Origin: Escherichia coli
Lineage (GTDB): Bacteria > Pseudomonadota > Gammaproteobacteria > Enterobacterales > Enterobacteriaceae
DNA: 64,000 nucleotides
Assembly (NCBI RefSeq): GCF_003018235.1
Contig: NZ_CP027437.1
Direction: 5' to 3' (one strand)
Positions 1 through 44,386 of this stretch are shown piece by piece. Each line of letters opens with the position of its first letter. Position 1 is the first letter of the stretch. The notes under the pieces were generated by a model, which saw nothing but the letters and a program-made list of their open reading frames with translations, ran no database searches and was not told the origin of the DNA. The position numbers were made by a program, and so were the translations under genes.

Positions 1-968
1 TGGACGGCAAACCGATTTATACGCTCTACATCGCGCTTTCGATCGATTTTCATCTTCATTACATAAATGATTTGATGAATAAACTTATTATGACCGCATC
101 GATCATCAGCATCCTGATCGTCTTTATCGTGCTGTTGGCGGTACATAAAGGTCACGCACCGATCCGCAGCGTCAGCCGTCAAATCCAGAACATTACCTCG
201 AAAGATCTCGACGTTCGCCTTGACCCGCAGACCGTGCCGATTGAGCTGGAACAGCTGGTACTGTCGTTCAACCATATGATCGAGCGTATTGAGGATGTCT
301 TTACCCGCCAGTCCAATTTCTCAGCGGATATCGCCCACGAAATTCGTACACCAATTACGAATCTCATAACGCAAACGGAAATCGCCCTCAGCCAGTCGCG
401 CAGCCAGAAGGAGCTGGAAGATGTGCTCTACTCTAATCTCGAAGAGCTGACGCGAATGGCGAAAATGGTCAGCGATATGCTGTTTCTCGCCCAGGCCGAT
501 AACAACCAGTTAATCCCCGAAAAGAAAATGCTCAACCTGGCGGATGAAGTCGGCAAAGTGTTCGATTTTTTCGAGGCATTAGCGGAAGATCGCGGCGTGG
601 AGTTGCGGTTTGTTGGTGACGAGTGTCAGGTTGCGGGCGATCCGCTGATGCTGCGTCGGGCGTTAAGCAACCTGCTTTCGAACGCCCTGCGTTATACGCC
701 GCCCGGAGAGGCGATTGTAGTGCGCTGCCAGACGGTCGATCACCAGGTGCAAGTTTCCGTCGAAAACCCCGGTACGCCCATTGCGCCCGAGCACTTACCG
801 CGATTGTTTGACCGTTTCTACCGCGTTGACCCCTCCCGCCAGCGAAAAGGCGAAGGTAGCGGCATTGGTCTGGCGATAGTGAAATCGATTGTTGTCGCGC
901 ATAAAGGCACGGTTGCAGTAACGTCAGATGCTCGGGGGACAAGGTTTGTTATCACATTACCCGCTTAA
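1..968 (+). CDS. cusS: Sensor histidine kinase CusS, C-terminal part (CDS enters the window from upstream; reading frame is open from base 3)
   Basis: Translation contains the HisKA phospho-acceptor motif (SADIAHEIRTPITNL) and HATPase motifs (LLSNALRYTP, GSGIGLAIV); matches CusS as I recall it; no in-frame stop upstream of 72. Confidence 0.9.
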   Translation, partial: DGKPIYTLYIALSIDFHLHYINDLMNKLIMTASIISILIVFIVLLAVHKGHAPIRSVSRQIQNITSKDLDVRLDPQTVPIELEQLVLSFNHMIERIEDVFTRQSNFSADIAHEIRTPITNLITQTEIALSQSRSQKELEDVLYSNLEELTRMAKMVSDMLFLAQADNNQLIPEKKMLNLADEVGKVFDFFEALAEDRGVELRFVGDECQVAGDPLMLRRALSNLLSNALRYTPPGEAIVVRCQTVDHQVQVSVENPGTPIAPEHLPRLFDRFYRVDPSRQRKGEGSGIGLAIVKSIVVAHKGTVAVTSDARGTRFVITLPA

Positions 969-1117
969 TTATTCAGCAAACGGCAACTTTTATAACCAGT
1001 GTAAAAATAACGTGCCGCAATAGTCATACCTATTAATGGTAAAAAGCTGTCACAATTCATAAAAAACCTTAATATACGCCACCCTAAACATAACCAGCGT
1101 TAATGTAAGGTTTTTGT

Positions 1118-3355
1118 GTGGACTGGCTTCTTGATGTTTTTGCTACCTGGCTCTACGGCTTAAAAGTAATCGCGATAACGTTAGCGGTCATCATGTTCAT
1201 CAGCGGGCTGGACGATTTTTTTATTGATGTCGTCTACTGGGTACGCCGCATTAAACGCAAGTTGAGTGTTTATCGCCGCTACCCGCGAATGAGTTACCGC
1301 GAACTGTATAAACCAGATGAAAAACCGTTAGCGATTATGGTTCCGGCGTGGAATGAAACGGGCGTCATCGGCAATATGGCCGAGCTGGCGGCGACCACGC
1401 TCGACTATGAAAACTATCATATCTTTGTTGGCACCTACCCCAACGACCCCGATACTCAGCGTGATGTTGACGAAGTGTGCGCTCGCTTCCCAAACGTGCA
1501 TAAGGTAGTCTGCGCGCGTCCTGGCCCCACCAGCAAAGCCGACTGCCTGAACAACGTGCTGGACGCCATCACCCAGTTTGAGCGTAGCGCCAATTTCGCA
1601 TTTGCTGGTTTTATTCTGCATGACGCCGAAGATGTGATTTCACCGATGGAATTGCGTCTGTTCAACTATCTGGTCGAGCGTAAAGATCTGATTCAGATCC
1701 CGGTGTACCCATTCGAACGCGAATGGACGCACTTCACCAGCATGACTTACATTGATGAGTTTTCAGAACTGCATGGCAAAGATGTTCCGGTGCGTGAAGC
1801 CCTCGCCGGACAGGTGCCCAGCGCAGGCGTCGGCACCTGTTTCAGCCGCCGCGCCGTGACCGCACTGTTAGCTGACGGTGACGGTATTGCTTTCGACGTG
1901 CAGAGTCTTACTGAAGATTACGACATTGGTTTCCGCCTGAAAGAAAAAGGTATGACGGAAATTTTTGTCCGTTTTCCGGTGGTGGACGAAGCCAAAGAAC
2001 GCGAGCAGCGTAAATTTTTACAGCACGCGCGGACGTCAAACATGATCTGCGTGCGCGAATATTTCCCCGATACCTTTTCGACTGCGGTTCGACAAAAATC
2101 TCGCTGGATCATCGGCATTGTTTTCCAGGGCTTTAAAACCCACAAATGGACCTCCAGCCTGACGCTGAACTACTTTCTCTGGCGCGACCGCAAAGGGGCA
2201 ATCAGTAACTTTGTCAGCTTCCTCGCGATGCTGGTGATGATCCAGCTTTTGCTGTTGCTGGCGTATGAAAGTTTGTGGCCCGATGCCTGGCATTTCCTTT
2301 CTATTTTCAGCGGCAGCGCATGGTTAATGACTCTGCTGTGGCTAAACTTTGGCTTGATGATTAACCGCATCGTGCAGCGGGTGATTTTCGTTACTGGCTA
2401 CTACGGCCTGACGCAGGGGCTGCTATCTGTCCTGCGTCTTTTCTGGGGCAACCTGATTAACTTCATGGCCAACTGGCGCGCGTTAAAACAGGTACTTCAA
2501 CACGGCGATCCACGTCGTGTCGCGTGGGATAAAACAACGCATGACTTCCCCAGCGTGACTGGCGATACCCGCTCGTTGCGTCCGTTAGGTCAAATCCTGC
2601 TGGAAAATCAGGTCATCACTGAAGAACAACTCGATACAGCACTGCGTAATCGCGTCGAAGGTCTACGCCTGGGCGGTTCAATGCTGATGCAGGGGCTGAT
2701 TAGCGCCGAACAGCTGGCACAGGCGCTGGCAGAGCAAAACGGCGTGGCGTGGGAGTCGATCGACGCCTGGCAGATCCCTTCATCACTGATTGCCGAAATG
2801 CCGGCCTCCGTGGCGCTGCATTATGCAGTACTGCCGCTGCGTCTGGAAAATGATGAGTTAATTGTCGGCAGTGAAGATGGTATTGACCCGGTTTCGCTGG
2901 CGGCCCTGACGCGTAAAGTCGGACGCAAAGTGCGTTACGTCATTGTTCTGCGGGGACAAATTGTCACGGGGTTACGCCACTGGTATGCGCGCCGACGCGG
3001 TCACGATCCGCGGGCAATGTTGTACAATGCGGTTCAGCATCAGTGGCTCACGGAACAGCAGGCCGGTGAAATCTGGCGGCAATATGTGCCGCATCAGTTC
3101 CTGTTCGCCGAAATACTGACCACGCTCGGTCATATTAATCGTTCAGCAATTAACGTGTTGTTATTGCGCCATGAACGCAGTTCTCTGCCGCTCGGCAAGT
3201 TTTTGGTCACCGAAGGCGTTATCAGCCAGGAAACGTTGGATCGCGTCCTGACAATTCAACGCGAATTACAAGTTTCGATGCAATCACTATTACTCAAAGC
3301 AGGTTTAAACACAGAACAGGTTGCGCAACTGGAGTCCGAAAATGAAGGAGAATAA
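1118..3355 (+). CDS. nfrB: Bacteriophage N4 adsorption protein B, inner-membrane glycosyltransferase-like (745 aa, GTG start)
   Basis: 745-aa ORF with N-terminal TM segment; size and sequence match K-12 NfrB; conserved position next to cusS and nfrA. Confidence 0.88.
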   Translation: MDWLLDVFATWLYGLKVIAITLAVIMFISGLDDFFIDVVYWVRRIKRKLSVYRRYPRMSYRELYKPDEKPLAIMVPAWNETGVIGNMAELAATTLDYENYHIFVGTYPNDPDTQRDVDEVCARFPNVHKVVCARPGPTSKADCLNNVLDAITQFERSANFAFAGFILHDAEDVISPMELRLFNYLVERKDLIQIPVYPFEREWTHFTSMTYIDEFSELHGKDVPVREALAGQVPSAGVGTCFSRRAVTALLADGDGIAFDVQSLTEDYDIGFRLKEKGMTEIFVRFPVVDEAKEREQRKFLQHARTSNMICVREYFPDTFSTAVRQKSRWIIGIVFQGFKTHKWTSSLTLNYFLWRDRKGAISNFVSFLAMLVMIQLLLLLAYESLWPDAWHFLSIFSGSAWLMTLLWLNFGLMINRIVQRVIFVTGYYGLTQGLLSVLRLFWGNLINFMANWRALKQVLQHGDPRRVAWDKTTHDFPSVTGDTRSLRPLGQILLENQVITEEQLDTALRNRVEGLRLGGSMLMQGLISAEQLAQALAEQNGVAWESIDAWQIPSSLIAEMPASVALHYAVLPLRLENDELIVGSEDGIDPVSLAALTRKVGRKVRYVIVLRGQIVTGLRHWYARRRGHDPRAMLYNAVQHQWLTEQQAGEIWRQYVPHQFLFAEILTTLGHINRSAINVLLLRHERSSLPLGKFLVTEGVISQETLDRVLTIQRELQVSMQSLLLKAGLNTEQVAQLESENEGE

Positions 3356-6314
3356 CCTTAATCGCGTCATCGGATGGTCTGGTTTACTGCTGACGTCTTT
3401 ATTGAGTACCAGCGCACTCGCAGACAATATCGGCACCAGCGCAGAAGAGCTGGGGCTGAGCGATTATCGCCATTTTGTTATTTATCCCCGTCTCGACAAG
3501 GCGCTGAAGGTACAGAAAAATAACGACGAAGCAACCGCCATCCGCGAATTTGAATATATACACCAGCAGGTGCCGGATAATATTCCGCTAACTTTATACC
3601 TTGCGGAAGCCTATCGCCATTTTGGTCATGATGACCGGGCGCGGCTGTTGCTTGAGGATCAACTGAAACGTCACCCAGGAGATGCCCGACTTGAGCGCAG
3701 TCTGGCGGCTATTCCAGTTGAAGTGAAAAGCGTTACGACTGTTGAAGAACTGCTTGCCCAGCAAAAAGCGTGCGATGCTGCGCCGACCCTGCGTTGTCGC
3801 AGTGAAGTTGGGCAGAATGCCCTGCGGCTGGCACAATTACCTGTCGCCAGAGCGCAACTGAACGATGCGACGTTTGCTGCATCGCCGGAAGGAAAAACGC
3901 TGCGAACCGATCTGCTGCAACGGGCAATCTACCTGAAGCAATGGTCCCAGGCAGATACGCTATACAATGAAGCACGCCAGCAGAACACATTAAGCGCGGC
4001 AGAACGCCGCCAGTGGTTTGATGTGCTTCTTGCCGGGCAGCTGGACGATCGGATCCTGGCGCTGCAATCACAGGGGATCTTCACCGATCCGCAGTCATAT
4101 ATTACTTACGCGACCGCGCTGGCTTATCGTGACGAAAAAGCACGCCTCCAGCGTTATCTCATTGAAAATACTCCGCTATTTACCACGGACGCACAAGAGA
4201 AAAGTTGGCTCTATCTGTTATCTAAATACAGCGGCAACCCCGTTCAGGCGTTGGCGAATTATACGGTACAGTTTGCCGACAACCGCCAGTATGTTGTTGG
4301 CGCGACGCTACCGGTGCTGTTAAAAGAAGGTCAGTACGACGCAGCGCAAAAACTGCTCGCCACCCTCCCCGCCAATGAAATGCTTGAGGAGCGTTATACC
4401 GTTAGCGTAGCGACCCATAACAAGGCTGAAGCTCTGCGTCTGGCACGATTGCTGTATCAGCAAGAACCGGCAAATCTTACCCGCCTGGATCAACTGACCT
4501 GGCAACTGATGCAGAACGAGCAGTCACGCGAAGCTGCCGATTTATTGCTGCAACGCTATCCTTTCCAGGGCGATGCGCGTGTCAGCCAGACTTTAATGGC
4601 GCGACTGGCGTCTCTGCTGGAAAGTCATCCTTACCTGGCAACTCCGGCGAAGGTGGCGATTTTATCGAAACCCTTACCGCTGGCGGAGCAACGTCAGTGG
4701 CAAAGTCAGTTGCCGGGTATTGCAGATAATTGCCCGGCAATAGTTCGCTTGCTGGGCGATATGTCGCCTTCCTACGATGCCGCCGCCTGGAACCGTCTGG
4801 CAAAGTGTTATCGGGACACGCTACCCGGTGTGGCGTTGTATGCATGGCTTCAGGCCGAACAACGACAACCGAACGCCTGGCAACATCGTGCGGTAGCCTA
4901 TCAGGCGTATCAGGTTGAGGACTACGCCACCGCACTGGCGGCCTGGCAGAAAATCAGTCTTCACGACATGAGCAATGAGGATCTGCTTGCTGCTGCCAAT
5001 ACCGCCCAGGCGGCAGGAAATGGTGCGGCTCGCGATCGCTGGCTTCAGCAGGCAGAACAACGTGGGCTGGGAAACAATGCCCTCTACTGGTGGCTGCATG
5101 CGCAACGTTACATTCCTGGTCAGCCGGAACTCGCACTGAACGATCTCACGCGCTCAATCAATATTGCGCCTTCTGCCAACGCTTACGTTGCGCGGGCGAC
5201 AATTTATCGCCAACGTCATAATGTCCCGGCGGCGGTGAGTGATTTGCGCGCCGCGCTGGAACTGGAACCGAATAATAGCAACACCCAGGCAGCGCTCGGT
5301 TACGCCTTGTGGGATAGCGGTGATATCGCACAGTCGCGGGAAATGCTCGAACAGGCGCATAAAGGGCTACCGGACGATCCGGCACTTATCCGACAACTGG
5401 CCTACGTGAACCAGCGTCTGGATAACATGCCTGCGACGCAGCACTACGCCCGGCTGGTGATTGATGACATTGATAATCAGGCGCTGATAACCCCACTGAC
5501 CCCAGAGCAAAATCAGCAACGCTTCAATTTCCGCCGTCTGCATGAGGAGGTCGGTCGCCGCTGGACGTTCAGTTTCGATTCTTCCATCGGCTTGCGTTCC
5601 GGCGCAATGAGTACCGCTAACAATAATGTCGGCGGCGCAGCGCCAGGGAAAAGCTATCGTAGCTACGGGCAACTGGAAGCCGAGTACCGCATCGGACGCA
5701 ATATGCTGCTGGAAGGCGACCTGCTCTCGGTTTACAGCCGTGTATTTGCCGATACCGGAGAAAACGGGGTGATGATGCCGGTGAAAAATCCGATGTCCGG
5801 CACCGGTCTGCGCTGGAAGCCGCTACGCGATCAGATCTTTTTCCTCGCCGTCGAACAGCAGTTGCCGCTGAACGGGCAAAATGGCGCATCCGATACCATG
5901 CTGCGCGCCAGCGCCTCATTCTTTAATGGCGGCAAATACAGCGACGAATGGCACCCGAACGGTTCAGGCTGGTTTGCCCAAAACCTGTACCTCGATGCGG
6001 CGCAATATATCCGCCAGGATATTCAGGCGTGGACGGCAGATTATCGCGTCAGCTGGCATCAGAAGGTAGCTAACGGACAGACTATTGAGCCTTACGCTCA
6101 CGTTCAGGACAACGGCTATCGTGATAAAGGCACTCAGGGCGCGCAGCTTGGCGGTGTCGGGGTCCGCTGGAATATCTGGACCGGCGAGACGCACTACGAC
6201 GCCTGGCCGCACAAAGTCAGTCTCGGCGTCGAGTATCAACATACCTTTAAGGCGATTAATCAACGTAACGGAGAGCGCAACAACGCGTTTCTCACCATTG
6301 GAGTGCACTGGTAA
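3342..6314 (+). CDS. nfrA: Bacteriophage N4 adsorption protein A, outer-membrane TPR protein
   Basis: Start chosen at MKENNLNRVIGW (signal peptide follows); overlaps nfrB end as in K-12. Confidence 0.85.
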   Translation: MKENNLNRVIGWSGLLLTSLLSTSALADNIGTSAEELGLSDYRHFVIYPRLDKALKVQKNNDEATAIREFEYIHQQVPDNIPLTLYLAEAYRHFGHDDRARLLLEDQLKRHPGDARLERSLAAIPVEVKSVTTVEELLAQQKACDAAPTLRCRSEVGQNALRLAQLPVARAQLNDATFAASPEGKTLRTDLLQRAIYLKQWSQADTLYNEARQQNTLSAAERRQWFDVLLAGQLDDRILALQSQGIFTDPQSYITYATALAYRDEKARLQRYLIENTPLFTTDAQEKSWLYLLSKYSGNPVQALANYTVQFADNRQYVVGATLPVLLKEGQYDAAQKLLATLPANEMLEERYTVSVATHNKAEALRLARLLYQQEPANLTRLDQLTWQLMQNEQSREAADLLLQRYPFQGDARVSQTLMARLASLLESHPYLATPAKVAILSKPLPLAEQRQWQSQLPGIADNCPAIVRLLGDMSPSYDAAAWNRLAKCYRDTLPGVALYAWLQAEQRQPNAWQHRAVAYQAYQVEDYATALAAWQKISLHDMSNEDLLAAANTAQAAGNGAARDRWLQQAEQRGLGNNALYWWLHAQRYIPGQPELALNDLTRSINIAPSANAYVARATIYRQRHNVPAAVSDLRAALELEPNNSNTQAALGYALWDSGDIAQSREMLEQAHKGLPDDPALIRQLAYVNQRLDNMPATQHYARLVIDDIDNQALITPLTPEQNQQRFNFRRLHEEVGRRWTFSFDSSIGLRSGAMSTANNNVGGAAPGKSYRSYGQLEAEYRIGRNMLLEGDLLSVYSRVFADTGENGVMMPVKNPMSGTGLRWKPLRDQIFFLAVEQQLPLNGQNGASDTMLRASASFFNGGKYSDEWHPNGSGWFAQNLYLDAAQYIRQDIQAWTADYRVSWHQKVANGQTIEPYAHVQDNGYRDKGTQGAQLGGVGVRWNIWTGETHYDAWPHKVSLGVEYQHTFKAINQRNGERNNAFLTIGVHW

Positions 6315-7205
6315 ATGCGTAAGTTCATTTTCGTATTGCTGACACTGCTTTTGGTCAGCCCTTTTTCCTTTGCGATGAAAGGTATTATCTGGCAACCACA
6401 AAACCGTGATAGTCAGGTTACCGATACCCAGTGGCAGGGGCTGATGAGTCAGTTACGTTTGCAAGGCTTCGATACCCTGGTTTTGCAATGGACCCGTTAC
6501 GGCGATGCATTCACCCAGCCAGAACAGCGCGCGTTATTGTTTAAGCGTGCCGCAGCTGCGCAACAGGCTGGCCTGAAGCTGATTGTCGGGCTGAATGCCG
6601 ATCCGGAATTTTTTATGCACCAGAAACAGTCATCCGCGGCGCTGGAAAGCTATCTTAATCGCCTGCTGGCTGCCGATCTCCAGCAAGCCAGATTATGGAG
6701 CGCCGCGCCTGGCGTAACGCCGGATGGCTGGTACATCAGCGCGGAAATTGACGACCTGAACTGGCGCAGCGAAGCCGCCCGTCAGCCTTTGCTAACATGG
6801 TTAAACAACGCGCAGCGGCTGATTAGCGATGTTTCAGCAAAACCGGTTTATATCAGTAGTTTTTTCGCCGGAAACATGTCGCCAGATGGCTATCGCCAAC
6901 TGCTGGAACAAGTTAAAGCAACCGGCGTTGATGTCTGGGTACAGGATGGCAGCGGCGTGGATAAACTTACCGCTGAACAGCGTGAACGTTATCTACAGGC
7001 CAGCGCCGATTGCCAAAGTTCCGCCCCTGCCAGCGGCATTGTTTATGAACTGTTTGTCGCCGGCAAAGGTAAAACCTTTACAGCGAAACCGAAACCGGAT
7101 GCAGAGATCGCCTCGCTGTTAGCGAAACGTTCCTCTTGCGGTAAAGACACGCTCTATTTCTCTCTGCGCTATTTGCCCGTTGCGCACGACATTCTCGAGT
7201 ATTAA
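6315..7205 (+). CDS. ybcH: Uncharacterised periplasmic protein YbcH (signal peptide)
   Basis: 296-aa ORF with N-terminal signal sequence immediately after nfrA, same order as K-12. Confidence 0.8.
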   Translation: MRKFIFVLLTLLLVSPFSFAMKGIIWQPQNRDSQVTDTQWQGLMSQLRLQGFDTLVLQWTRYGDAFTQPEQRALLFKRAAAAQQAGLKLIVGLNADPEFFMHQKQSSAALESYLNRLLAADLQQARLWSAAPGVTPDGWYISAEIDDLNWRSEAARQPLLTWLNNAQRLISDVSAKPVYISSFFAGNMSPDGYRQLLEQVKATGVDVWVQDGSGVDKLTAEQRERYLQASADCQSSAPASGIVYELFVAGKGKTFTAKPKPDAEIASLLAKRSSCGKDTLYFSLRYLPVAHDILEY

Positions 7206-7739
7206 ATCTCCTCCAGGTAAGTCGGGTACGACCTGGCTTACCTCTTTCGCTCTCGTCAGAATTCCATCAAGATTAATTGCTAAAAAGCGTGCTAAAGAAA
7301 GAAGATCGTTATCGGCGAACGGGCCGATCACTCATGCAGGAAGCATAGATCCTTTGAGCGGAGTTTCTGATATCTGAGGAGTGCGAAATGCAATTGAGCA
7401 GCAGTGAACCTTGCGTGGTGATCCTGACCGAAAAAGAGGTAGAGGTAAGCGTTAATAACCATGCCACGTTTACCCTTCCGAAAAACTACCTGGCCGCCTT
7501 CGCGTGCAACAATAACGTCATTGAACTCTCAACGTTAAATCACGTATTAATCACCCACATCAACCGCAACATCATCAACGATTATCTGTTGTTTTTAAAT
7601 AAGAACTTAACCTGCGTAAAGCCCTGGTCGCGGCTGGCTACCCCGGTTATCGCTTGTCATAGCCGTACACCGGAAGTGTTCCGGCTAGCCGCCAACCACA
7701 GCAAGCAGCAACCCAGCAAACCCTGCGAAGCGGAGTTGA

Positions 7740-9810
<2,071 letters not shown>

Positions 9811-30287: not shown

Positions 30288-32021
30288 TTAAAGCGAGCGG
30301 ATCCCGTAGGACTCAATGTGATCAGACAGCGTGTCTTCTTTCTCGTACAGCATGGCTCTGCCAACCGCCATAATCAGCGCAACTGCACCATCAATTTTGT
30401 TTTCCGCCTGCTCCTTGACGGGCTTCACCACATCATCGTTACCCGGAATGGTTTTGCCGACCACGTTGCCGATACACCAGGTCATGATGGGATTGCCGTC
30501 ATGATGAAAACGCCCCGATTCAATTGCCGCTTCCAGCTCTTTCAGCGGGTCGGACATGTTGGTGTAGTTCTGAATGATGGTGATGGGGTTCAGGTCTTCA
30601 TCCGCAAGGTCATGCGACAGCCCGGTCGCCCCGAAGGGGTCGATGGGTGACTCACTGACCGGGCTGATTTTGTTCGCCGCTTTGGCCTCCTCGAGGATGT
30701 AGCGATAATCCACCTCCGCACCATCGGTAACGGTCAGAACGCCCATTTCCACCCATTTCTGAAAGCGCTCGGCTGTCCGGCGATCTTCATTTTTCTCGAC
30801 GCTGTACACCGTGTCATACGGTACCCAGAAGCGCGGAGCCACACTGTAGTAATGCGTTTTACCGTCAATCTCGCGGGTATAAAGTCGCGCCATACTGTTC
30901 ATATCCAGCTTACGCGCCAGGTCAAAGGCCAGAATGCACGGCTGCCCCTCAAACTGCTCAAGGGTCAGTGATTTATCCTCGCAGCTCTGCCAGCTCACCA
31001 GGTTGAAATACGCCGAACGCGCCGACACCCAGATATTGAGGTGTTTTGTTTTAAAGACGTTTGCCAGACGGGCGTTATTTTTCGCACGCTGCTGCTGACT
31101 TAACAAAAATTCGCGATAAACCGACACGCCAATATTTGGATTGGCTTTTTCCAGCACCTGCGGGTCGGTCCAGTCGTCACCTTCATCAACGGTATAGATG
31201 ATCCCGAACAGTTCATCGTTGGGCACCGAGCCGTTGAGCATCTCGATGACTTCCCGCCGCTTGTCGTAGCACGGCCCCTCAATGTTGTACCCGGCAGTAG
31301 TAATGGCCCACATCAGTGGCTGACGTCGCGCCCCCATCCCGGTAAGCATCGTGGTGTAAAGCGCATCGGTGGCGTGCTCGTGATATTCATCCACCACCGC
31401 ACAGTGGGGTGATGATCCATCACCGGGGTTACCGATCAGCGGTTCAAAACGCGCACCATCCTCCGGACGGTTCATGTTTGAGGCGTTAACCTCAATCCCG
31501 AACGCTTCCGTCAGCATGGGTGTGCGTTTACACATCAGTCGCGCCGGGCGAAAGACTTCCCACGCCTGTTTCTCTGTCGTGGCACCGGAATACACTTCCG
31601 CGCCAAACTCGTTATCACAGGCAAAACAATACAGGGCGACACCGGCAGAGATTGCCGATTTGCCGTTCTTACGGGGGATTTCGGTATACACCTCACGGAA
31701 GCGGCGCAGCCGGGAGCCTTTATTGACCCAGCCAAACGCGCAGCAGATCACAAAGAGCTGCCACGGCTCCAGCGTGATGGGCATCCTCTTGAATGCCCAC
31801 TCACCCTTGGTGTGCGGCAACAGCTGAATAAATTTGGCGGCCCGTTCAGCCAGGTCCTTGTCGAAGCGGTAACGAAACGACTTACTTTTTTCCGCCATCA
31901 GGTCATCAAGATGGCGCTGGCAGGCCTGAATCACAAACTGGCAGGCCACAATCTTTCCGCGAACGACATCCCGGGCATACTGATTGGCAGCATTTACGTT
32001 GGGGTAAGATTTCCGGCTCAT
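30288..32021 (-). CDS. Terminase large subunit
   Basis: 577-aa ORF with Walker A-like motif ([14 protein letters not shown]) and C-terminal nuclease region; overlaps small-subunit stop. Confidence 0.85.
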
Positions 32022-32521
32022 GATTCGATGATTTTCAGAAACGGGTTAGTGGCTTTCTTCTGCCCCGCCAGGCCAATCAGACGCTGGCGGCTGCTGGGGT
32101 CGAGTCCGAGCATTGCCCCCGTGCTGCTCATCTCGGACTCCTGTTCTTTTTTGGCGGTCAGCTCCGGGTTTTTGACCATACCGCCCATTGCACCGGTGAT
32201 GGTGTTGCCCTGGCTGGCAATATTCTTCACGGCACGTCGCCAGAACTCATAGGCCACGCACCACCGCTCAAGTACCGCCAGGTCAGTCACGCACAACAGG
32301 CCCTGACCGCAGAGTTCTTTGGTTGTCAGTTGCCACATGATCGTGGCGAGAGGGAGATCTTCTTCAGCGAACCACTCCGGTGGCTCAACACCTTTGATGG
32401 GCGTAAAAACAGGTTCATCTTTGTTCAGGGCTCGCTTGCCGGGGTTTCCGGCCAGCGCCTTGCGCGCCGTTGGCTTGGGGCGACGCCCGGAACGCCCCGC
32501 CGTTCCAGCCATATGCGGCAC
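32018..32521 (-). CDS. Terminase small subunit (P27 family)
   Basis: 167-aa ORF directly upstream of the large subunit. Confidence 0.75.
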
Positions 32522-32637: not shown

Positions 32638-32988
32638 TTACTTCAGCCATTCACGGGCCGTCTTCGCCTTGTGGCACGGCCAGCACAGACTCTGCAGATT
32701 ACTGTCGGCATCAGTGCCGCCATGTGCTTTAGGGATGATGTGGTCAACGGTTTTCGCCTCACGCACCACACCGGCACGCAGACATAACTGACACAGGCCT
32801 TTGTCACGCTTCAGGACACGCACGCGGATAACATCCCACTTCGAACCATAACCGCGCTGATGACGAGATTGTCCTGGCTTGTATTGCTTCCAGCCTTCGC
32901 TTTTATGGCTTTCACAATAGCCTGACGGGTCAGTAGTGGTATTGCGGCAACCGCGAACGCGGCAGGCTTTTGGTGTTCGTGGCGGCAT
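32638..32988 (-). CDS. HNH endonuclease associated with terminase (cos-cleavage helper)
   Basis: 116-aa ORF with paired Cys clusters and H-N-H motif (…VDHIIPKAHGGTDADSNLQSLCWPCHKAKT). Confidence 0.85.
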   Translation of the reverse strand: MPPRTPKACRVRGCRNTTTDPSGYCESHKSEGWKQYKPGQSRHQRGYGSKWDVIRVRVLKRDKGLCQLCLRAGVVREAKTVDHIIPKAHGGTDADSNLQSLCWPCHKAKTAREWLK

Positions 32989-33040
32989 ATCTACTCCAAT
33001 GAAAAAGCTACCGGTTGATAACCGATGGCTTTGATTGTTC

Positions 33041-33412
33041 TTACCTGTTTTGAAGAATCTCCCGCTTTCTTACAATACATTCCGTCGTTTCTCTATAGCT
33101 GCACACGTGCTCCCGTGAACATTGGTATGTGTGCAATTCGCCGATGGCATCACCGATACCAGTCAGCACATCTTTTTCATGCAGAATGGTCACCTGCAGA
33201 CGGTTGGTTGGGCAGATAATGTTTGAATAGTTCATTTTGGTGTCTCCTTTGCTTTCGAGACACCAAAATCCCATCACGACACGTTTACCGCCACAAACAT
33301 TATTGCAGGCACCCATTGAATACCTGCGGGACTGATAAACACAGCCTCCTCCATACGTAGTGAAACCATTTTCATATCTCCAGTAATGAATTCTTTGAAG
33401 AGTCGCAATCAA
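33041..33412 (-). CDS. Hypothetical protein (123 aa); coding status uncertain
   Basis: ORF between lysis cassette and HNH; contains a perfect 13-bp hairpin inside it. Confidence 0.25.
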   Translation of the reverse strand: MIATLQRIHYWRYENGFTTYGGGCVYQSRRYSMGACNNVCGGKRVVMGFWCLESKGDTKMNYSNIICPTNRLQVTILHEKDVLTGIGDAIGELHTYQCSREHVCSYRETTECIVRKREILQNR

Positions 33413-33605
33413 TACGACTCACTAATGGGGAGGCATGTCCAACGCGTTGGACGAGTTGCCTACTTGATTTAGATGACACTTTAGAAGGACAGAATGCCTT
33501 CCTCACTCAAATAACATCAATTAAGGAGGTTCAACATGCTTCGTTCCAAAAGTCAGTTGACTGTAATTATTACTACGTCACCTTATGCCGAAGACCTTTT
33601 CCGCT

Positions 33606-33881
33606 TCACTTTGAGCCTGATTCACTTCTACCTGACCGGCTCGCCTCTATCCTTCTGATCCCCGCTTTATCCAGATTGCACTGCCCTAGCGCCGACAACA
33701 GACTGACATTCAAATCTAGACTACCCGCATAAGTCAGCGGTTCAGAAATGGCTGGTTGCGGGGTTTCAGCGGTCAGACTCGCCGGTAACGGTATAGCCGG
33801 AACTGGCACGTAAACTGTCCGCGAACTTTCGCAACCGGTCAGCAGCGGCAGCAGGCACAGGGCGTACAGCACAATCATCAT
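33606..33881 (-). CDS. Putative o-spanin Rz1-like lipoprotein, overlapping and extending past Rz
   Basis: Alternative frame inside Rz: MMIVLYALCLLPLLTGC (lipobox) followed by a Pro-rich segment. Confidence 0.5.
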   Translation of the reverse strand: MMIVLYALCLLPLLTGCESSRTVYVPVPAIPLPASLTAETPQPAISEPLTYAGSLDLNVSLLSALGQCNLDKAGIRRIEASRSGRSESGSK

Positions 33882-34158
33882 CCGCAACAGCCACTTTGAT
33901 ATCAGCCTGGGTTCTCTGTGACTCCAGTGCGATCTGCTGTTTTGCATGCTGGTTAGCCTCCAGAACTGTATTGACGATTTGCAGTGATTGCAGGACGTTA
34001 TTGGTAATAGCGGTTGCCGATTCGGCATTTTGTACAGCCTCATCAGCACGTTTCTTTTCGCGCTGGTATTTGCTGTGGTAGTGGTTAGCTGACCAGACGA
34101 GAGAACCGAATAAAGTCAGGAGGAAAGCAGAAATAACCAGCTTATAGCGAAGTTTCAT
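33766..34158 (-). CDS. i-spanin Rz-like protein
   Basis: N-terminal TM helix then coiled-coil region; directly after endolysin. Confidence 0.65.
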   Translation of the reverse strand: MKLRYKLVISAFLLTLFGSLVWSANHYHSKYQREKKRADEAVQNAESATAITNNVLQSLQIVNTVLEANQHAKQQIALESQRTQADIKVAVADDDCAVRPVPAAAADRLRKFADSLRASSGYTVTGESDR

Positions 34159-34618
34159 TAACCACCCCGCCAGCTTCTTTGAATTTGGCAATCAGACTAT
34201 CGATCTTGTGTTCATACTGACCGTAGCCAGCACCGGGCAATGAGGCCCAAATATTGCTGCAACGATCAATAGCCTGACGAATATCACCCCGATCAATCAG
34301 CGGCAGCGCGCCGCGTTCTTTAATCTGCTGTAACGCCACCGCATCCTGGCTTTTCGGGGAGAAATCTTTCAGTCCAAGCTGTTTACGGTAGGCGTCCCAC
34401 CATTTCGACAGCAGTTGATAACGCCCGGCGGCGGTGGATTTCAGTTTCGGGTTAAGCGTAACCAGCTTACGTGGATGATCGGAGTAATCAGTAAGCAGTT
34501 CGCCACCAACGATAACGTCATAACCATGATTTCTGGTCTTCTGCCATCCGTTATCAGTTCCTTCTGACCACGCCAGCATATCGAGGAAGGCTTTACGCTG
34601 AGGATTAAGGTTTTGCAT
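34142..34618 (-). CDS. Endolysin, lambda R-type lytic transglycosylase
   Basis: 158-aa ORF nearly co-linear with lambda R as I recall it (…QRKAFLDMLAWSEGTDNG…DYSDHPRKLVTLNPKLKSTAAGRYQLLS…). Confidence 0.9.
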   Translation of the reverse strand: MQNLNPQRKAFLDMLAWSEGTDNGWQKTRNHGYDVIVGGELLTDYSDHPRKLVTLNPKLKSTAAGRYQLLSKWWDAYRKQLGLKDFSPKSQDAVALQQIKERGALPLIDRGDIRQAIDRCSNIWASLPGAGYGQYEHKIDSLIAKFKEAGGVVNETSL

Positions 34619-34922
34619 TTTTCACCCCTGTCAGTCGTTCCCAGAAGTAAGTCAGCGCAACTGAACCCATTGCACCGCTGATCCCTGCTGTGGCGAGAAT
34701 CATGTAAATGCTAAATCCGCTTTCGATACTTATCAGGCCACCAATAACACCGGTAAAACCCGATACCACTATCTGAGCCAGAGCATTAATCCAGCTCCAT
34801 GTTGCTTTGCTCTGCTTCACATCAATCAGGTAACGGACAAGCCCGCCCCAGCACGCGAAGATCAGCAGAACGAGCCAGGACATCCCGGCAATGCTCTCTT
34901 TTTCGTGCATATGAATAGCCAT
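34605..34922 (-). CDS. Putative holin (start uncertain)
   Basis: Hydrophobic protein with 2-3 predicted TM segments immediately upstream of endolysin. Confidence 0.6.
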   Translation of the reverse strand: MAIHMHEKESIAGMSWLVLLIFACWGGLVRYLIDVKQSKATWSWINALAQIVVSGFTGVIGGLISIESGFSIYMILATAGISGAMGSVALTYFWERLTGVKNAKP

Positions 34923-34951
34923 GATTTTGCCGCCGACGGATGATCGGGACT

Positions 34952-35449
34952 CTAAATGATAGGGAACAGACTCACGGGGTAATTTAACGACAAAGCACGG
35001 AGTTGAAGATCCCCACAAGCCTGGAATAAAAAAGCCAGCGACAGGCTGGCAATGTGAGGGTAACGCAAAGTGCTTAGAAACAAAAAAAGGCCGCCATCGG
35101 CGACCTTCGAGGTATCTAGCGTGCTGGATACTTTCAGCTTCGCCTTCAATTCAGCGTTGATTTCTTTCAGGCGATCAACATCGTTTTTAAGTTTTTCAAT
35201 GTCTTGCCCTTTATTATCAAGGTCGCGCTGAAGACCTTTAATAATTTCTGTTTGGGCCGCCTGTACTTCTCGTGTCGTCTGGAGAGACTTATCAATATCA
35301 TCAACTTGGTTAATCAAGCGTGTACCGAAAAAGCCTACAACTAACATAGTTATCCCAACCATAAAGTTGAGAACCCAGACTTTTGTTCCGGAAGCAGTGT
35401 TTGGAGTTTCGTCGATAAAGTGCACCTTATGCCAGTTAAAGTTACCCAA
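34952..35449 (-). CDS. Hypothetical membrane-anchored coiled-coil protein; may be partly read-through
   Basis: ORF with one TM segment and a K/E-rich coiled coil upstream of holin. Confidence 0.3.
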   Translation of the reverse strand: MGNFNWHKVHFIDETPNTASGTKVWVLNFMVGITMLVVGFFGTRLINQVDDIDKSLQTTREVQAAQTEIIKGLQRDLDNKGQDIEKLKNDVDRLKEINAELKAKLKVSSTLDTSKVADGGLFLFLSTLRYPHIASLSLAFLFQACGDLQLRALSLNYPVSLFPII

Positions 35450-35908
35450 CGTCTGCGCAGATCGTTAGATTCGGCAACATTGTAACTGGATAAGGAATAG
35501 AAAACCTTGGAATTTTAAGAAGAAACTGATTGATCGATTATTTAACGAGCGAACACATCCATACACCCCAGACGGGTACTACGACAAAGGCCATGAAATA
35601 AGTAACTTTTGCTTGAATGTTTTGCATTTCGCTTCCTTAGCAGTCCGATAAGTACTGTCTGCTCATCCAACCTAACGAATGTAGATCAGAATGACAAGTC
35701 TTTCGCGCTAATTTCAATTTGATATCTGTTCGTAAACATGATGGCGCGAAATATTACGCATGAAGTGCTTCTACATCAACATAAAAGTTACTTTTTTTGT
35801 GTTCACAGCATGTAAAGTAAAAGCCCCGCACGATGGCGAGGCTGTTAATTCTTTGTCGACCAACAAAGCTATGGCGACGATATCAGATTTACATGAAATA
35901 TAAGCGTT
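35450..35908 (-). promoter_or_regulatory. Probable late promoter / Q-utilisation region between Q-like gene and lysis cassette
   Basis: Long non-coding AT-rich gap in the position of lambda PR'-qut; no specific site assigned. Confidence 0.3.
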
Positions 35909-43781: not shown

Positions 43782-44317
43782 ATTGCCCCCAGCATGGTGG
43801 TGACCATTGCCATCAGTGGACCAGCCAGATCCGGGTCCACTCGAAACATCGACACAATGCCTTCACTCATCTCCTTCAGTTTCTGGTGGCGTGGTGCGTT
43901 GAGAATGACCGCCTGCTTTGCCTCACTGAGTTCCTTTTCCATTTCAGCCAGCCGAGCCATGAAGCTATCCTGCTCAACTAGGTAACCGCGATATTCCAGC
44001 GGTAGTACCGCCAGAATTGCCGGGGTCAGTTCACGCACGTTATTTCTGTATTTTTCAGAATCGAATTTGTTATCGAGGAAGCGGAACAGCTTCTGGCGTG
44101 CACGGCTGACATCATCAGGGAAATCGATGGTGCCGCCGCCCTGCTCCCGATACTCATTCACAATGAGTGCGGCAACGACATCCTGATTATCTACAGCCGA
44201 CCAGGCGCGGACGGCATCACGGATTTTTTCGTGGCCTGGAGCTTGTTTTGTTTGAGAACGATTTATCACCGCAGTCGGGCTAAATCCGCTAGTCTGTTGG
44301 TATGTAAGTGGTTGCAT
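43778..44317 (-). CDS. CII-position regulatory protein (YdaT-like family suspected)
   Basis: 179-aa ORF directly downstream of the cro-like gene and upstream of O. Confidence 0.45.
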   Translation of the reverse strand: MQPLTYQQTSGFSPTAVINRSQTKQAPGHEKIRDAVRAWSAVDNQDVVAALIVNEYREQGGGTIDFPDDVSRARQKLFRFLDNKFDSEKYRNNVRELTPAILAVLPLEYRGYLVEQDSFMARLAEMEKELSEAKQAVILNAPRHQKLKEMSEGIVSMFRVDPDLAGPLMAMVTTMLGAI

Positions 44318-44386
44318 AATTGACTCCTTTAGTTTGAATTGACTGTTAAGTTGATTGCTTATTGTTAAAGAGCGTGAAATGGAAAT

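Follow-up and report, generated by a model that had tools for sequence, protein, structure and literature searches.

In the lambdoid prophage carried by Escherichia coli contig NZ_CP027437.1 (assembly GCF_003018235.1), a perfect hairpin on the minus strand, at 33234..33269, covers part of the Shine-Dalgarno (SD) sequence and part of the start codon of a small gene that we call orf64. Coordinates are those of the 64,000-nucleotide stretch of this contig that was analysed, hereafter the window. We propose that the hairpin is probably a cis-acting translational block on the orf64 messenger RNA (mRNA), acting by sequestration of the ribosome binding site (RBS), and that its most likely effect is to keep translation of orf64 off or very low. 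It would then be a concrete case of a lambdoid prophage accessory gene whose translation is blocked within the most heavily transcribed operon of the phage. To our knowledge, control by RBS masking, well documented in phage T4, has rarely been described for the accessory genes, or morons, of lambdoid phages. The annotation of the region is also corrected: the gene has 64 codons rather than 123, and the hairpin stands in its leader rather than in its coding sequence.

Written in plus-strand letters, the two arms are ATTTTGGTGTCTC (33234-33246) and GAGACACCAAAAT (33257-33269), each 13 nucleotides (nt) long, 100% complementary, and separated by 10 nt. A minus-strand transcript begins with the 5' arm AUUUUGGUGUCUC (33269-33257), continues with the loop GAAAGCAAAG (33256-33247) and ends with the 3' arm GAGACACCAAAAU (33246-33234), and the whole element reads GAUUUUGGUGUCUC-GAAAGCAAAG-GAGACACCAAAAUG. 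It was found by a repeat search, by an exhaustive hairpin scan and by RNA folding, and a hairpin is predicted at the same position in the diverged alleles B, C and D presented below. A preliminary description of this region had already reported a perfect stem of 13 base pairs (bp) with a loop of 10 nt, and it was right: the arms are those it gave, minus one flanking base per side. The exhaustive scan, with loops of 3 to 20 nt, detects no other perfect hairpin of 12 bp or more in the window, and this one is also the longest. Forty dinucleotide-preserving shuffles contain on average 0.025 perfect stems of 13 bp or more, against the one observed. As minus-strand RNA, the 38-nt hairpin folds at -19.2 kcal/mol (z = -7.35 against shuffles), and the 60-mer that holds it ranks in the lowest 0.3% among window 60-mers of similar G+C. 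Within the window, neither arm has a second copy, at up to 2 mismatches, beyond chance, and a trans-acting RNA partner encoded there is rejected on this ground; the sole match of the Rfam covariance models on the hairpin is a chance microRNA, with E = 7.1.

The SD sequence of orf64, AAGGAG, lies at 33244..33249, as identified from the minus-strand reading and the predicted pairing, and its AUG start codon at 33233..33235, after a spacer of 8 nt. This AUG is the start chosen by PGAP for protein WP_109161702.1, and the PHROG profile begins at the same methionine. The 3' arm holds the last three bases of the SD sequence, GAG (33246-33244), the entire spacer, and the A and U of the start codon (33235-33234), which are its final two paired bases; the base that follows is the G. 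Pairing of the SD sequence and the start codon within a stable local helix of the mRNA itself is what characterizes an RBS-sequestering hairpin, and orf64 shows it. The mean unpaired probability between positions -14 and +3 is 0.25 at orf64, against a median of 0.56 for the 42 other SD-bearing candidate starts of the window, and the orf64 start is among the inaccessible and stably folded extremes, matched by only 1 of these 42. The overlap had been missed in the preliminary description because the element was read there on the plus strand.

That description placed the hairpin inside an open reading frame (ORF) of 123 codons, at 33041..33412 on the minus strand, and took the hairpin as a reason to doubt that the ORF is coding. 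The location does not hold, and the doubt is justified for only one part of the ORF. The 123-codon ORF, with a TTG start at 33412, is a mechanical one, made of the orf64 frame and 59 upstream codons. The upstream extension loses the frame in allele B, where the hairpin has a net deletion of 2 nt, and it carries stop codons in alleles D and E; we reject the 123-amino-acid (aa) ORF as a gene on account of these broken frames. The last 64 codons, by contrast, have every mark of a gene. At 33041..33235, stop codon included, orf64 matches family phrog_31491 over residues 1-64 of 64 (E 5.5e-50), and the 123-aa version matches it only through its residues 60-123. Exactly this 195-nt segment is annotated by PGAP as the coding sequence of WP_109161702.1 in E. 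coli EC17CM13, a strain with 99.6% identity to the window. Homologues of 64 to 66 aa have 80% (P0002), 64% (P0004) and 38% (P0007) identity, and the four cysteines of orf64 (C8, C39, C45 and C53) are invariant. The ratios of nonsynonymous to synonymous substitution rates (dN/dS) are 0.39 between alleles A and B, 0.18 between A and D, and 0.14 between B and D. These comparisons indicate that the real gene is the last 64 codons of the 123-codon ORF, and that orf64 is under purifying selection. With orf64 conserved and the frame ahead of it disrupted in alleles B, D and E, the hairpin belongs to the 5' leader and not to the coding sequence. The preliminary description had also offered a refutation test, by synonymous variation through the hairpin, which is inapplicable because the hairpin is non-coding.

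The orf64 protein is hydrophilic. It has no match in Pfam, NCBIfam, PADLOC or PDB, and its AlphaFold2 model has a mean predicted local distance difference test score (pLDDT) of 52.7, which makes it unusable. An apparent match to a protein of 3442 aa, P0005, was discarded as a repeat-protein artefact.

Five alleles of the leader can be compared: allele A, that of the window, of E. coli and of Salmonella; allele B, at loci L010 and L011; allele C, at L021; allele D, at L022; and allele E, at L020. The search for them covered 5.8 billion and 1.84 billion proteins, together with viral, genome and metagenome scans, and it produced no further allele in the INPHARED phages, the GTDB representative genomes, IMG/VR or the JGI metagenomes. 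Against the 13 perfect pairs over the SD sequence and AUG of allele A, with a loop of 10 nt and -19.2 kcal/mol, allele B has the arms UUUUGUGCCUUU and GGAGGUACAAAA, with 12 pairs, three of them G·U, around a loop of 7 nt (-12.5 kcal/mol). Allele C has 9 pairs, or 12 with a bulged C, and a loop of 6 nt (-9.7 kcal/mol); allele D has 7 + 5 pairs around a 2x2 internal loop, and a loop of 8 nt (-10 to -11 kcal/mol). In each of these four alleles, the 3' arm spans the segment from GGAG to the A or U of AUG. In allele E, which comes from a G+C-rich organism, the fold covers part of the SD sequence.

The comparison of alleles A and B is the most informative on how the stem is kept. They differ in 12 of 39 aligned columns, and allele B still forms a stem of 12 bp that covers AGGAGG and extends to the A of AUG. 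The differences affect seven consecutive pairs counted from the AUG: at five of them both bases are replaced (C-G to A-U, A-U to U·G, C-G to G-C, A-U to G-C, and G-C to A-U), and at the other two a single base, which gives a wobble pair. In a null model of 5000 trials, where allele A is randomly mutated with the number of changes matched to each allele, the variants reach the folding stability of the real allele in 2.5% of cases for B, 10% for C and 9% for D, a support that is suggestive rather than overwhelming. Because of the G·U pairs, the sense strand folds better than the antisense strand, at -12.5 versus -5.1 kcal/mol in allele B and -9.7 versus -4.0 in allele C. This asymmetry favours an RNA read from the gene's own strand, and disfavours a DNA cruciform. 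We thus consider, with moderate confidence and on four alleles, that the stem is kept in diverged homologues through compensatory and wobble changes. The check proposed in the preliminary description, conservation of the hairpin versus that of the ORF, has an answer on both sides: the stem is kept in alleles A to D, and the ORF is also conserved, but only in its 64-codon part.

A 30S ribosomal subunit requires a single-stranded RBS. With a stability of -19 kcal/mol, or about -10 to -12.5 in the other alleles, the stem would block 30S binding and leave orf64 translation at or near zero. The block would act on any transcript that contains both arms, including the abundant read-through of the late operon from the lysis genes to the HNH endonuclease and terminase genes, and expression of orf64 would then require active unfolding, or loss of the 5' arm. 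It is from this need of the 30S subunit for a free RBS, and from the T4 precedents presented below, that we infer the translational silence of orf64. Stem strength varies widely between alleles, which suggests that being off by default is the selected state, and not a tuned level of expression.

What might open the stem is a different question. The likeliest opener in allele A could, tentatively, be ribosome traffic on a short upstream ORF, which has an SD sequence GGAG, 8 nt and an AUG at about 33369, and which ends at the UGA 33276-33274, 5 nt before the stem. In allele A this UGA overlaps an in-frame AUG, at 33274-33272 (UGAUG); the AUG is kept in alleles A, B and C, in frame only in A, and it is lost in D. 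As a general mechanism, a conserved leader peptide read through the stem was rejected: the upstream ORF, of 31 to 33 aa, is a chimera of flank and cassette. It has an early stop in allele B and is absent in alleles C and D. The default-off state is the sole part of the mechanism to which we commit, since no opening mechanism is conserved across alleles.

Helices that sequester the RBS in T4 genes e, soc, 49 and I-TevI cut translation, about 100-fold for gene e (PMC3014915). In these genes, and in mobE of phage Aeh1 (McPheeters 1986; Gibb & Edgell 2009; reviewed in PMC3014915), the SD sequence, the AUG or both lie, as in orf64, in a local helix inside a heavily transcribed phage operon; several of the genes are themselves mobile insertions, and the helix lowers translation from read-through RNA. 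There are differences: in T4, the block is lifted by a documented late promoter placed downstream of the 5' arm and ahead of the RBS, and none is detectable at orf64 by sigma-70 promoter scans, which require both hexamers and have promoters of the extended -10 type outside their reach. These scans found no promoter on either strand of the window region, L021 and L022. Moreover, the phage here is temperate and lambdoid, and orf64 has no known function. The operator hairpins at the replicase or coat starts of MS2 and Qβ also control translation by holding the initiation region in a hairpin (see also PMC2978339); they are short, bulged and protein-bound, in RNA phages, and the orf64 stem is long and perfect. 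Taken together, the comparisons suggest that the orf64 hairpin is a known kind of control, found here on a rare accessory gene.

Type I toxin mRNAs such as hok/mok, tisB and zorO have a small ORF whose SD sequence is hidden in a stable stem, and are activated by upstream translation or by 5' processing. The hydrophilic, cysteine-containing orf64 protein is unlike their membrane peptides, no antisense or nearby small RNA complementary to the orf64 leader was found, and the opposite strand carries no promoter-like site detected by the same scans. The locus thus does not appear to be a type I toxin-antitoxin system. In Lactococcus AbiD1 (PMC2661086), the start region is structured and poorly translated by default, and it is switched on by a phage protein; the folded start of orf64 can be likened to it, although there is no sequence relation between the two, and PADLOC, which has no match for orf64, gives no sign of a defence or toxic gene.

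Several observations weigh against a translational block. As said, no opener is conserved across alleles, with the upstream ORF stopped early in B and the AUG beside the stem lost in D, and a stability that ranges from about -10 to -19 kcal/mol is hard to square with one tuned level of expression. There are just four informative alleles, which are not independent, and the support of each is modest (p 0.025-0.10); the fold of allele E is not better than that of shuffles (z -0.46), and we do not count it as evidence. Finally, orf64 has frameshifted and truncated copies, P0003 (55 aa; loci L012-L014), where the frameshift is a 2-nt GG insertion after codon 25, and P0006 (52 aa; L021). Such lineages imply that orf64 is dispensable. 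The frameshifted copies retain the leader hairpin, and the cassette may be decaying in some prophages, in which case the perfect stem of the window may have no current role.

Among the other explanations, the one that survives best retains the sequestering helix and makes it a transcript-specific gate, of the type of T4 gene e, I-TevI or mobE. The late read-through RNA, with both arms, would be silent, and a promoter or processing site in or just upstream of the 5' arm would produce a shorter, translated RNA, for example in the lysogen. The arrangement, a mobile gene with its RBS in a helix within a strongly transcribed operon, fits the T4 cases (PMC3014915), and a gene that is off by default whatever the strength of its stem fits the wide range of stabilities. 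A weak candidate for the promoter is TGGGATTTT, a sequence unchanged across alleles A, B and C, which overlaps the base of the 5' arm and contains a TGn and the hexamer GATTTT in the manner of an extended -10 element. However, GATTTT matches TATAAT at 3 of 6 positions, there is no -35 element, the TG is lost in allele D, and the promoter scans are negative on both strands at all three loci. We regard such a gate as unlikely.

Slightly less probable, in our opinion, is a role in RNA processing or stability, where the hairpin would be a target of RNase III, the flank of an RNase E site, or a protective 5' or 3' hairpin that sets the half-life of the late mRNA, and where masking of the SD sequence would be incidental. 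A perfect duplex of 13 bp, to which the minimum-energy fold adds 5 weak pairs in this allele, and single-stranded flanks rich in A and U are compatible with this role. Yet a stem of 13 bp is a short substrate for RNase III, the 9 to 12 pairs of alleles C and D are interrupted by bulges or internal loops, and the 5-pair extension is not conserved in the Salmonella allele. Wherever it occurs, the hairpin accompanies orf64 and stops at the AUG of the gene, an arrangement that an element of general mRNA stability could do without, and phages that lack the cassette lack such a stem. The preliminary description had suggested an RNA processing or regulatory element: a regulatory RNA element is the more likely of the two, and processing gains no specific support.

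A transcription terminator or attenuator, or else a DNA cruciform or recombination site that moves the cassette, is very improbable. It is true that this is a strong palindrome in a mobile cassette, and that the cassette is bounded by hairpins. But there is no U-tract 3' of the stem on either strand, where AAAAUGAACUAUUC follows on minus and AAAAUCCCAUCAC on plus, nor in any other allele; the terminator scan does not call the hairpin, in agreement with the preliminary description, which had denied it the status of a canonical intrinsic terminator; and the cassette already has a canonical terminator at 33032-33000. As for a DNA site, the hairpin is internal, 70 nt from the edge of the cassette, in alleles B and C the structure is specific to one strand on account of its G·U pairs, and the covariance model of the junction hairpin described below does not match it. 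Still less credible is a chance palindrome without function: allele A is nearly clonal, with at least 99% identity in all 19 E. coli genomes that have it, and the perfection of the stem is maybe recent, but the expected number of such stems per window is the 0.025 given above, and the stem persists in diverged alleles. An RNA thermometer, in which the stem would melt at host body temperature and free the SD sequence, might be suggested by the A-U-rich base of the stem (AUUUU/AAAAU) and by the precedent of a prophage fourU thermometer (PMC10586365), and is rejected in silico: the unpaired probability of GGAG is flat up to 60-70 °C in all alleles, with allele A unchanged from 25 to 70 °C, and the stem has none of the mismatches typical of thermometers.

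We now turn to the cassette that carries orf64. The genes around it all have the minus-strand orientation: holin (34605-35018), lysozyme (34142-34618), Rz (33766-34191), overlapped by an Rz1/LysC ORF that ends at 33606, then, beyond the cassette, HNH endonuclease (32638-32988), small terminase (32018-32521) and large terminase (30288-32021). About 340 nt (~33340-33001) are missing from Shigella phage SfIV and from E. coli EC958, with both flanks shared. We consider this segment, 33001..33340 on the minus strand, as an inserted moron-like cassette formed of a junction-hairpin remnant, a leader with the RBS hairpin, orf64, and a terminator. The empty site is found in about 617 E. coli records that share both flanks, and the cassette in 19 of 5426 E. 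coli genomes, always with at least 99% identity; E. coli strains that have it include H7, 90-9281, MS 69-1 and EC17CM13. Its G+C is 0.45, versus 0.56 for the packaging genes. Directly 5' of the RBS hairpin stands the leader motif GUCGUGAU (33273..33280, minus strand), invariant in alleles A to D and at the same position in L010, L021 and L022. Even the very distant allele E (L020) has the GUCGUGA of this motif, as the 5' arm of a stem adjoining the SD sequence.

The intrinsic terminator of the cassette, at 33000..33032 on the minus strand, was detected by the terminator scan and consists of AAAGCCAUCGGUU-AUC-AACCGGUAGCUUUUUCA, a stem of 13 pairs that contains one mismatch and precedes UUUUU. 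Alleles B, C and D retain it, the upper part of the stem showing compensatory changes, and in L021 and L022 it is a textbook terminator. The mismatch, C/A at 33027/33009, is a feature of the window, where the minus strand has A at 33009 and its relatives have G; it is absent from EC17CM13, L012 and L014. In L021, the cassette is 3' of an Rz-like gene and an ORF of 65 aa, and no HNH gene follows it; in L022, it comes after a lipoprotein gene. The gap between lysis and HNH genes in L022 (1135-2474) contains three independent accessory units: a lipoprotein gene of 117 aa, the orf64 cassette, and a membrane protein of 67 aa on the opposite strand. These three units thus mark the site as a hot spot of accessory genes.

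Presence or absence between collinear relatives, together with a terminator of its own, makes the cassette a putative moron. With the morons of HK97-like and lambdoid prophages (PMC3594210), it shares the status of extra DNA with respect to close relatives, a lower G+C, the terminator, and a hot spot of accessory genes between lysis and packaging genes. It differs in that no convincing promoter of its own was found, and in that the classical descriptions do not include a translational block. A candidate extended -10 promoter upstream of the leader, TGCAATAAT / TGTGATAAT, was withdrawn: it is the 3' half of a 39-nt junction hairpin.

This junction hairpin, whose canonical form is GCATTACAGCAGGCATTCACTGAGTGCCTGYGATAATGC, has a degenerate copy in the window at 33296..33336 on the minus strand, detected by a covariance model with 33.2 bits and E 7e-7. 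The inner stem-loop, 33327-33305, is intact, and the outer 5' half is missing where the insertion begins, at the 5' edge of the cassette. Complete copies occur at the same place in L021 (2407-2447) and L022 (1502-1542), and in L151, which is phage phi80 (2000-2040). Exact copies are found in phi80 (44299-44337), 5 nt after the stop codon of rha, in Klebsiella phages, in Pectobacterium ZF40, in mEp390 and in 94 E. coli genomes; the core pattern is present in at least 120 IMG/VR contigs. Where copies were located, the hairpin is never annotated, has the sense of the late genes, and is always located between the lysis genes and those for terminase, with a stop codon 1-6 nt ahead of it. Conservation falls sharply beyond the 39 nt, with 102 different downstream sequences among the matches listed. 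Several loci have two or more copies on one strand; the clearest tandem array, as given by the covariance model, is that of L046 (703/1044/1355/1687) and L069 (6253/6585/6896/7237), with a spacing of 311-341 nt, and small sense-strand ORFs end at or just before 3 of its 4 copies.

The hairpin folds at -22.1 kcal/mol in the late-gene sense and at -16.4 in antisense. Its inner helix covaries, with 5 of 16 pairs compensatory, between the fixed flanks GCATTACAG and YGATAATGC. In the alignment, 95.9% of cells are paired, a value reached by none of 500 shuffles, although fitting the alignment to the model biases it towards such an outcome. Integron attC sites, REP (repetitive extragenic palindromic) elements and T7 RNase III sites are architectural parallels. 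The literature search found no paper containing the junction-hairpin sequence, and the nearest published analogue known to us is the PeSL motif of T4 (PMC2839356, PMC4122927), which flanks shuffled cassettes whose circular or deleted forms have been looked for by PCR, and to which the junction hairpin may be comparable, as a cassette-junction or RNA-processing element. In many temperate phages, phi80 among them, it stands between small gene cassettes, and it may be the lambdoid counterpart of the shuffling motifs of T4. Masking of the RBS as a general rule after the junction element is unsupported: the SD sequence is fully paired in 12 of 59 first ORFs versus 139 of 739 controls (Fisher p 0.44), and the shift in accessibility between the two sets is small (median 0.46 vs 0.52).

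If the block on orf64 is conditional, the gene becomes a candidate regulated effector. It is tempting to go further and conjecture, although we consider it quite improbable as a whole, that orf64 encodes a conditional effector, for example a small metal-binding or disulfide-bonded protein directed against phages or the host, locked by the RBS hairpin and released, as in AbiD1, only on a specific signal; a superinfecting phage might for instance supply it as a protein or an RNA, or ribosomes moving along the late transcript after induction might do so. The hairpin would then be the sensor switch within a so far undescribed system, in which mini-cassettes bounded by hairpins, and recognizable by the 39-nt GCATTACAG...GATAATGC element, would shuffle accessory genes among enterobacterial temperate phages.

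Upstream of the cassette, between the stop codon of Rz1 and the cassette followed by the HNH gene, about 300 nt (33341-33625, minus strand) are conserved and unannotated. About 617 E. coli records, in which it precedes HNH, and SfIV have this segment at about 86% identity, and Rfam has no match for it. Two hairpins in it have compensatory changes, from GTCCAACGCGTTGGAC to GTCTCACGTGTGAGAC and from GAGTCG..CGACTC to GAGTTG..CAACTC, whose U·G intermediate fits the late-sense strand only. The segment also holds an invariant ACCUCCUUA, in late sense, which is identical to the 3' end of the 16S ribosomal RNA. The same bases, read on the plus strand as TAAGGAGGT, form a perfect SD sequence placed 5 nt before the ATG of a 40-aa ORF (33536-33658; 33518-33658 with the sequence in front of it), antisense to the late genes. 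This ORF keeps its length in EC958, yet only 6 of its 19 first residues are identical, and it is called by gene callers in Logan contigs; its conservation may be that of either a protein or an RNA motif. At 33409-33431, on the plus strand, CAATACGACTCACTAATGGGGAGG shares a run of 14 nt, AATACGACTCACTA, with the consensus of T7 class III promoters; the likeness is probably a coincidence, the segment forming one arm and the loop of the GAGTCG/CGACTC hairpin. Farther upstream, at 35820-35893 on the minus strand, Rfam detects a match to isrJ, a small RNA that binds Hfq; it scores 64.9 bits, where the gathering score is 37, and lies in the region of the late promoter, upstream of holin.

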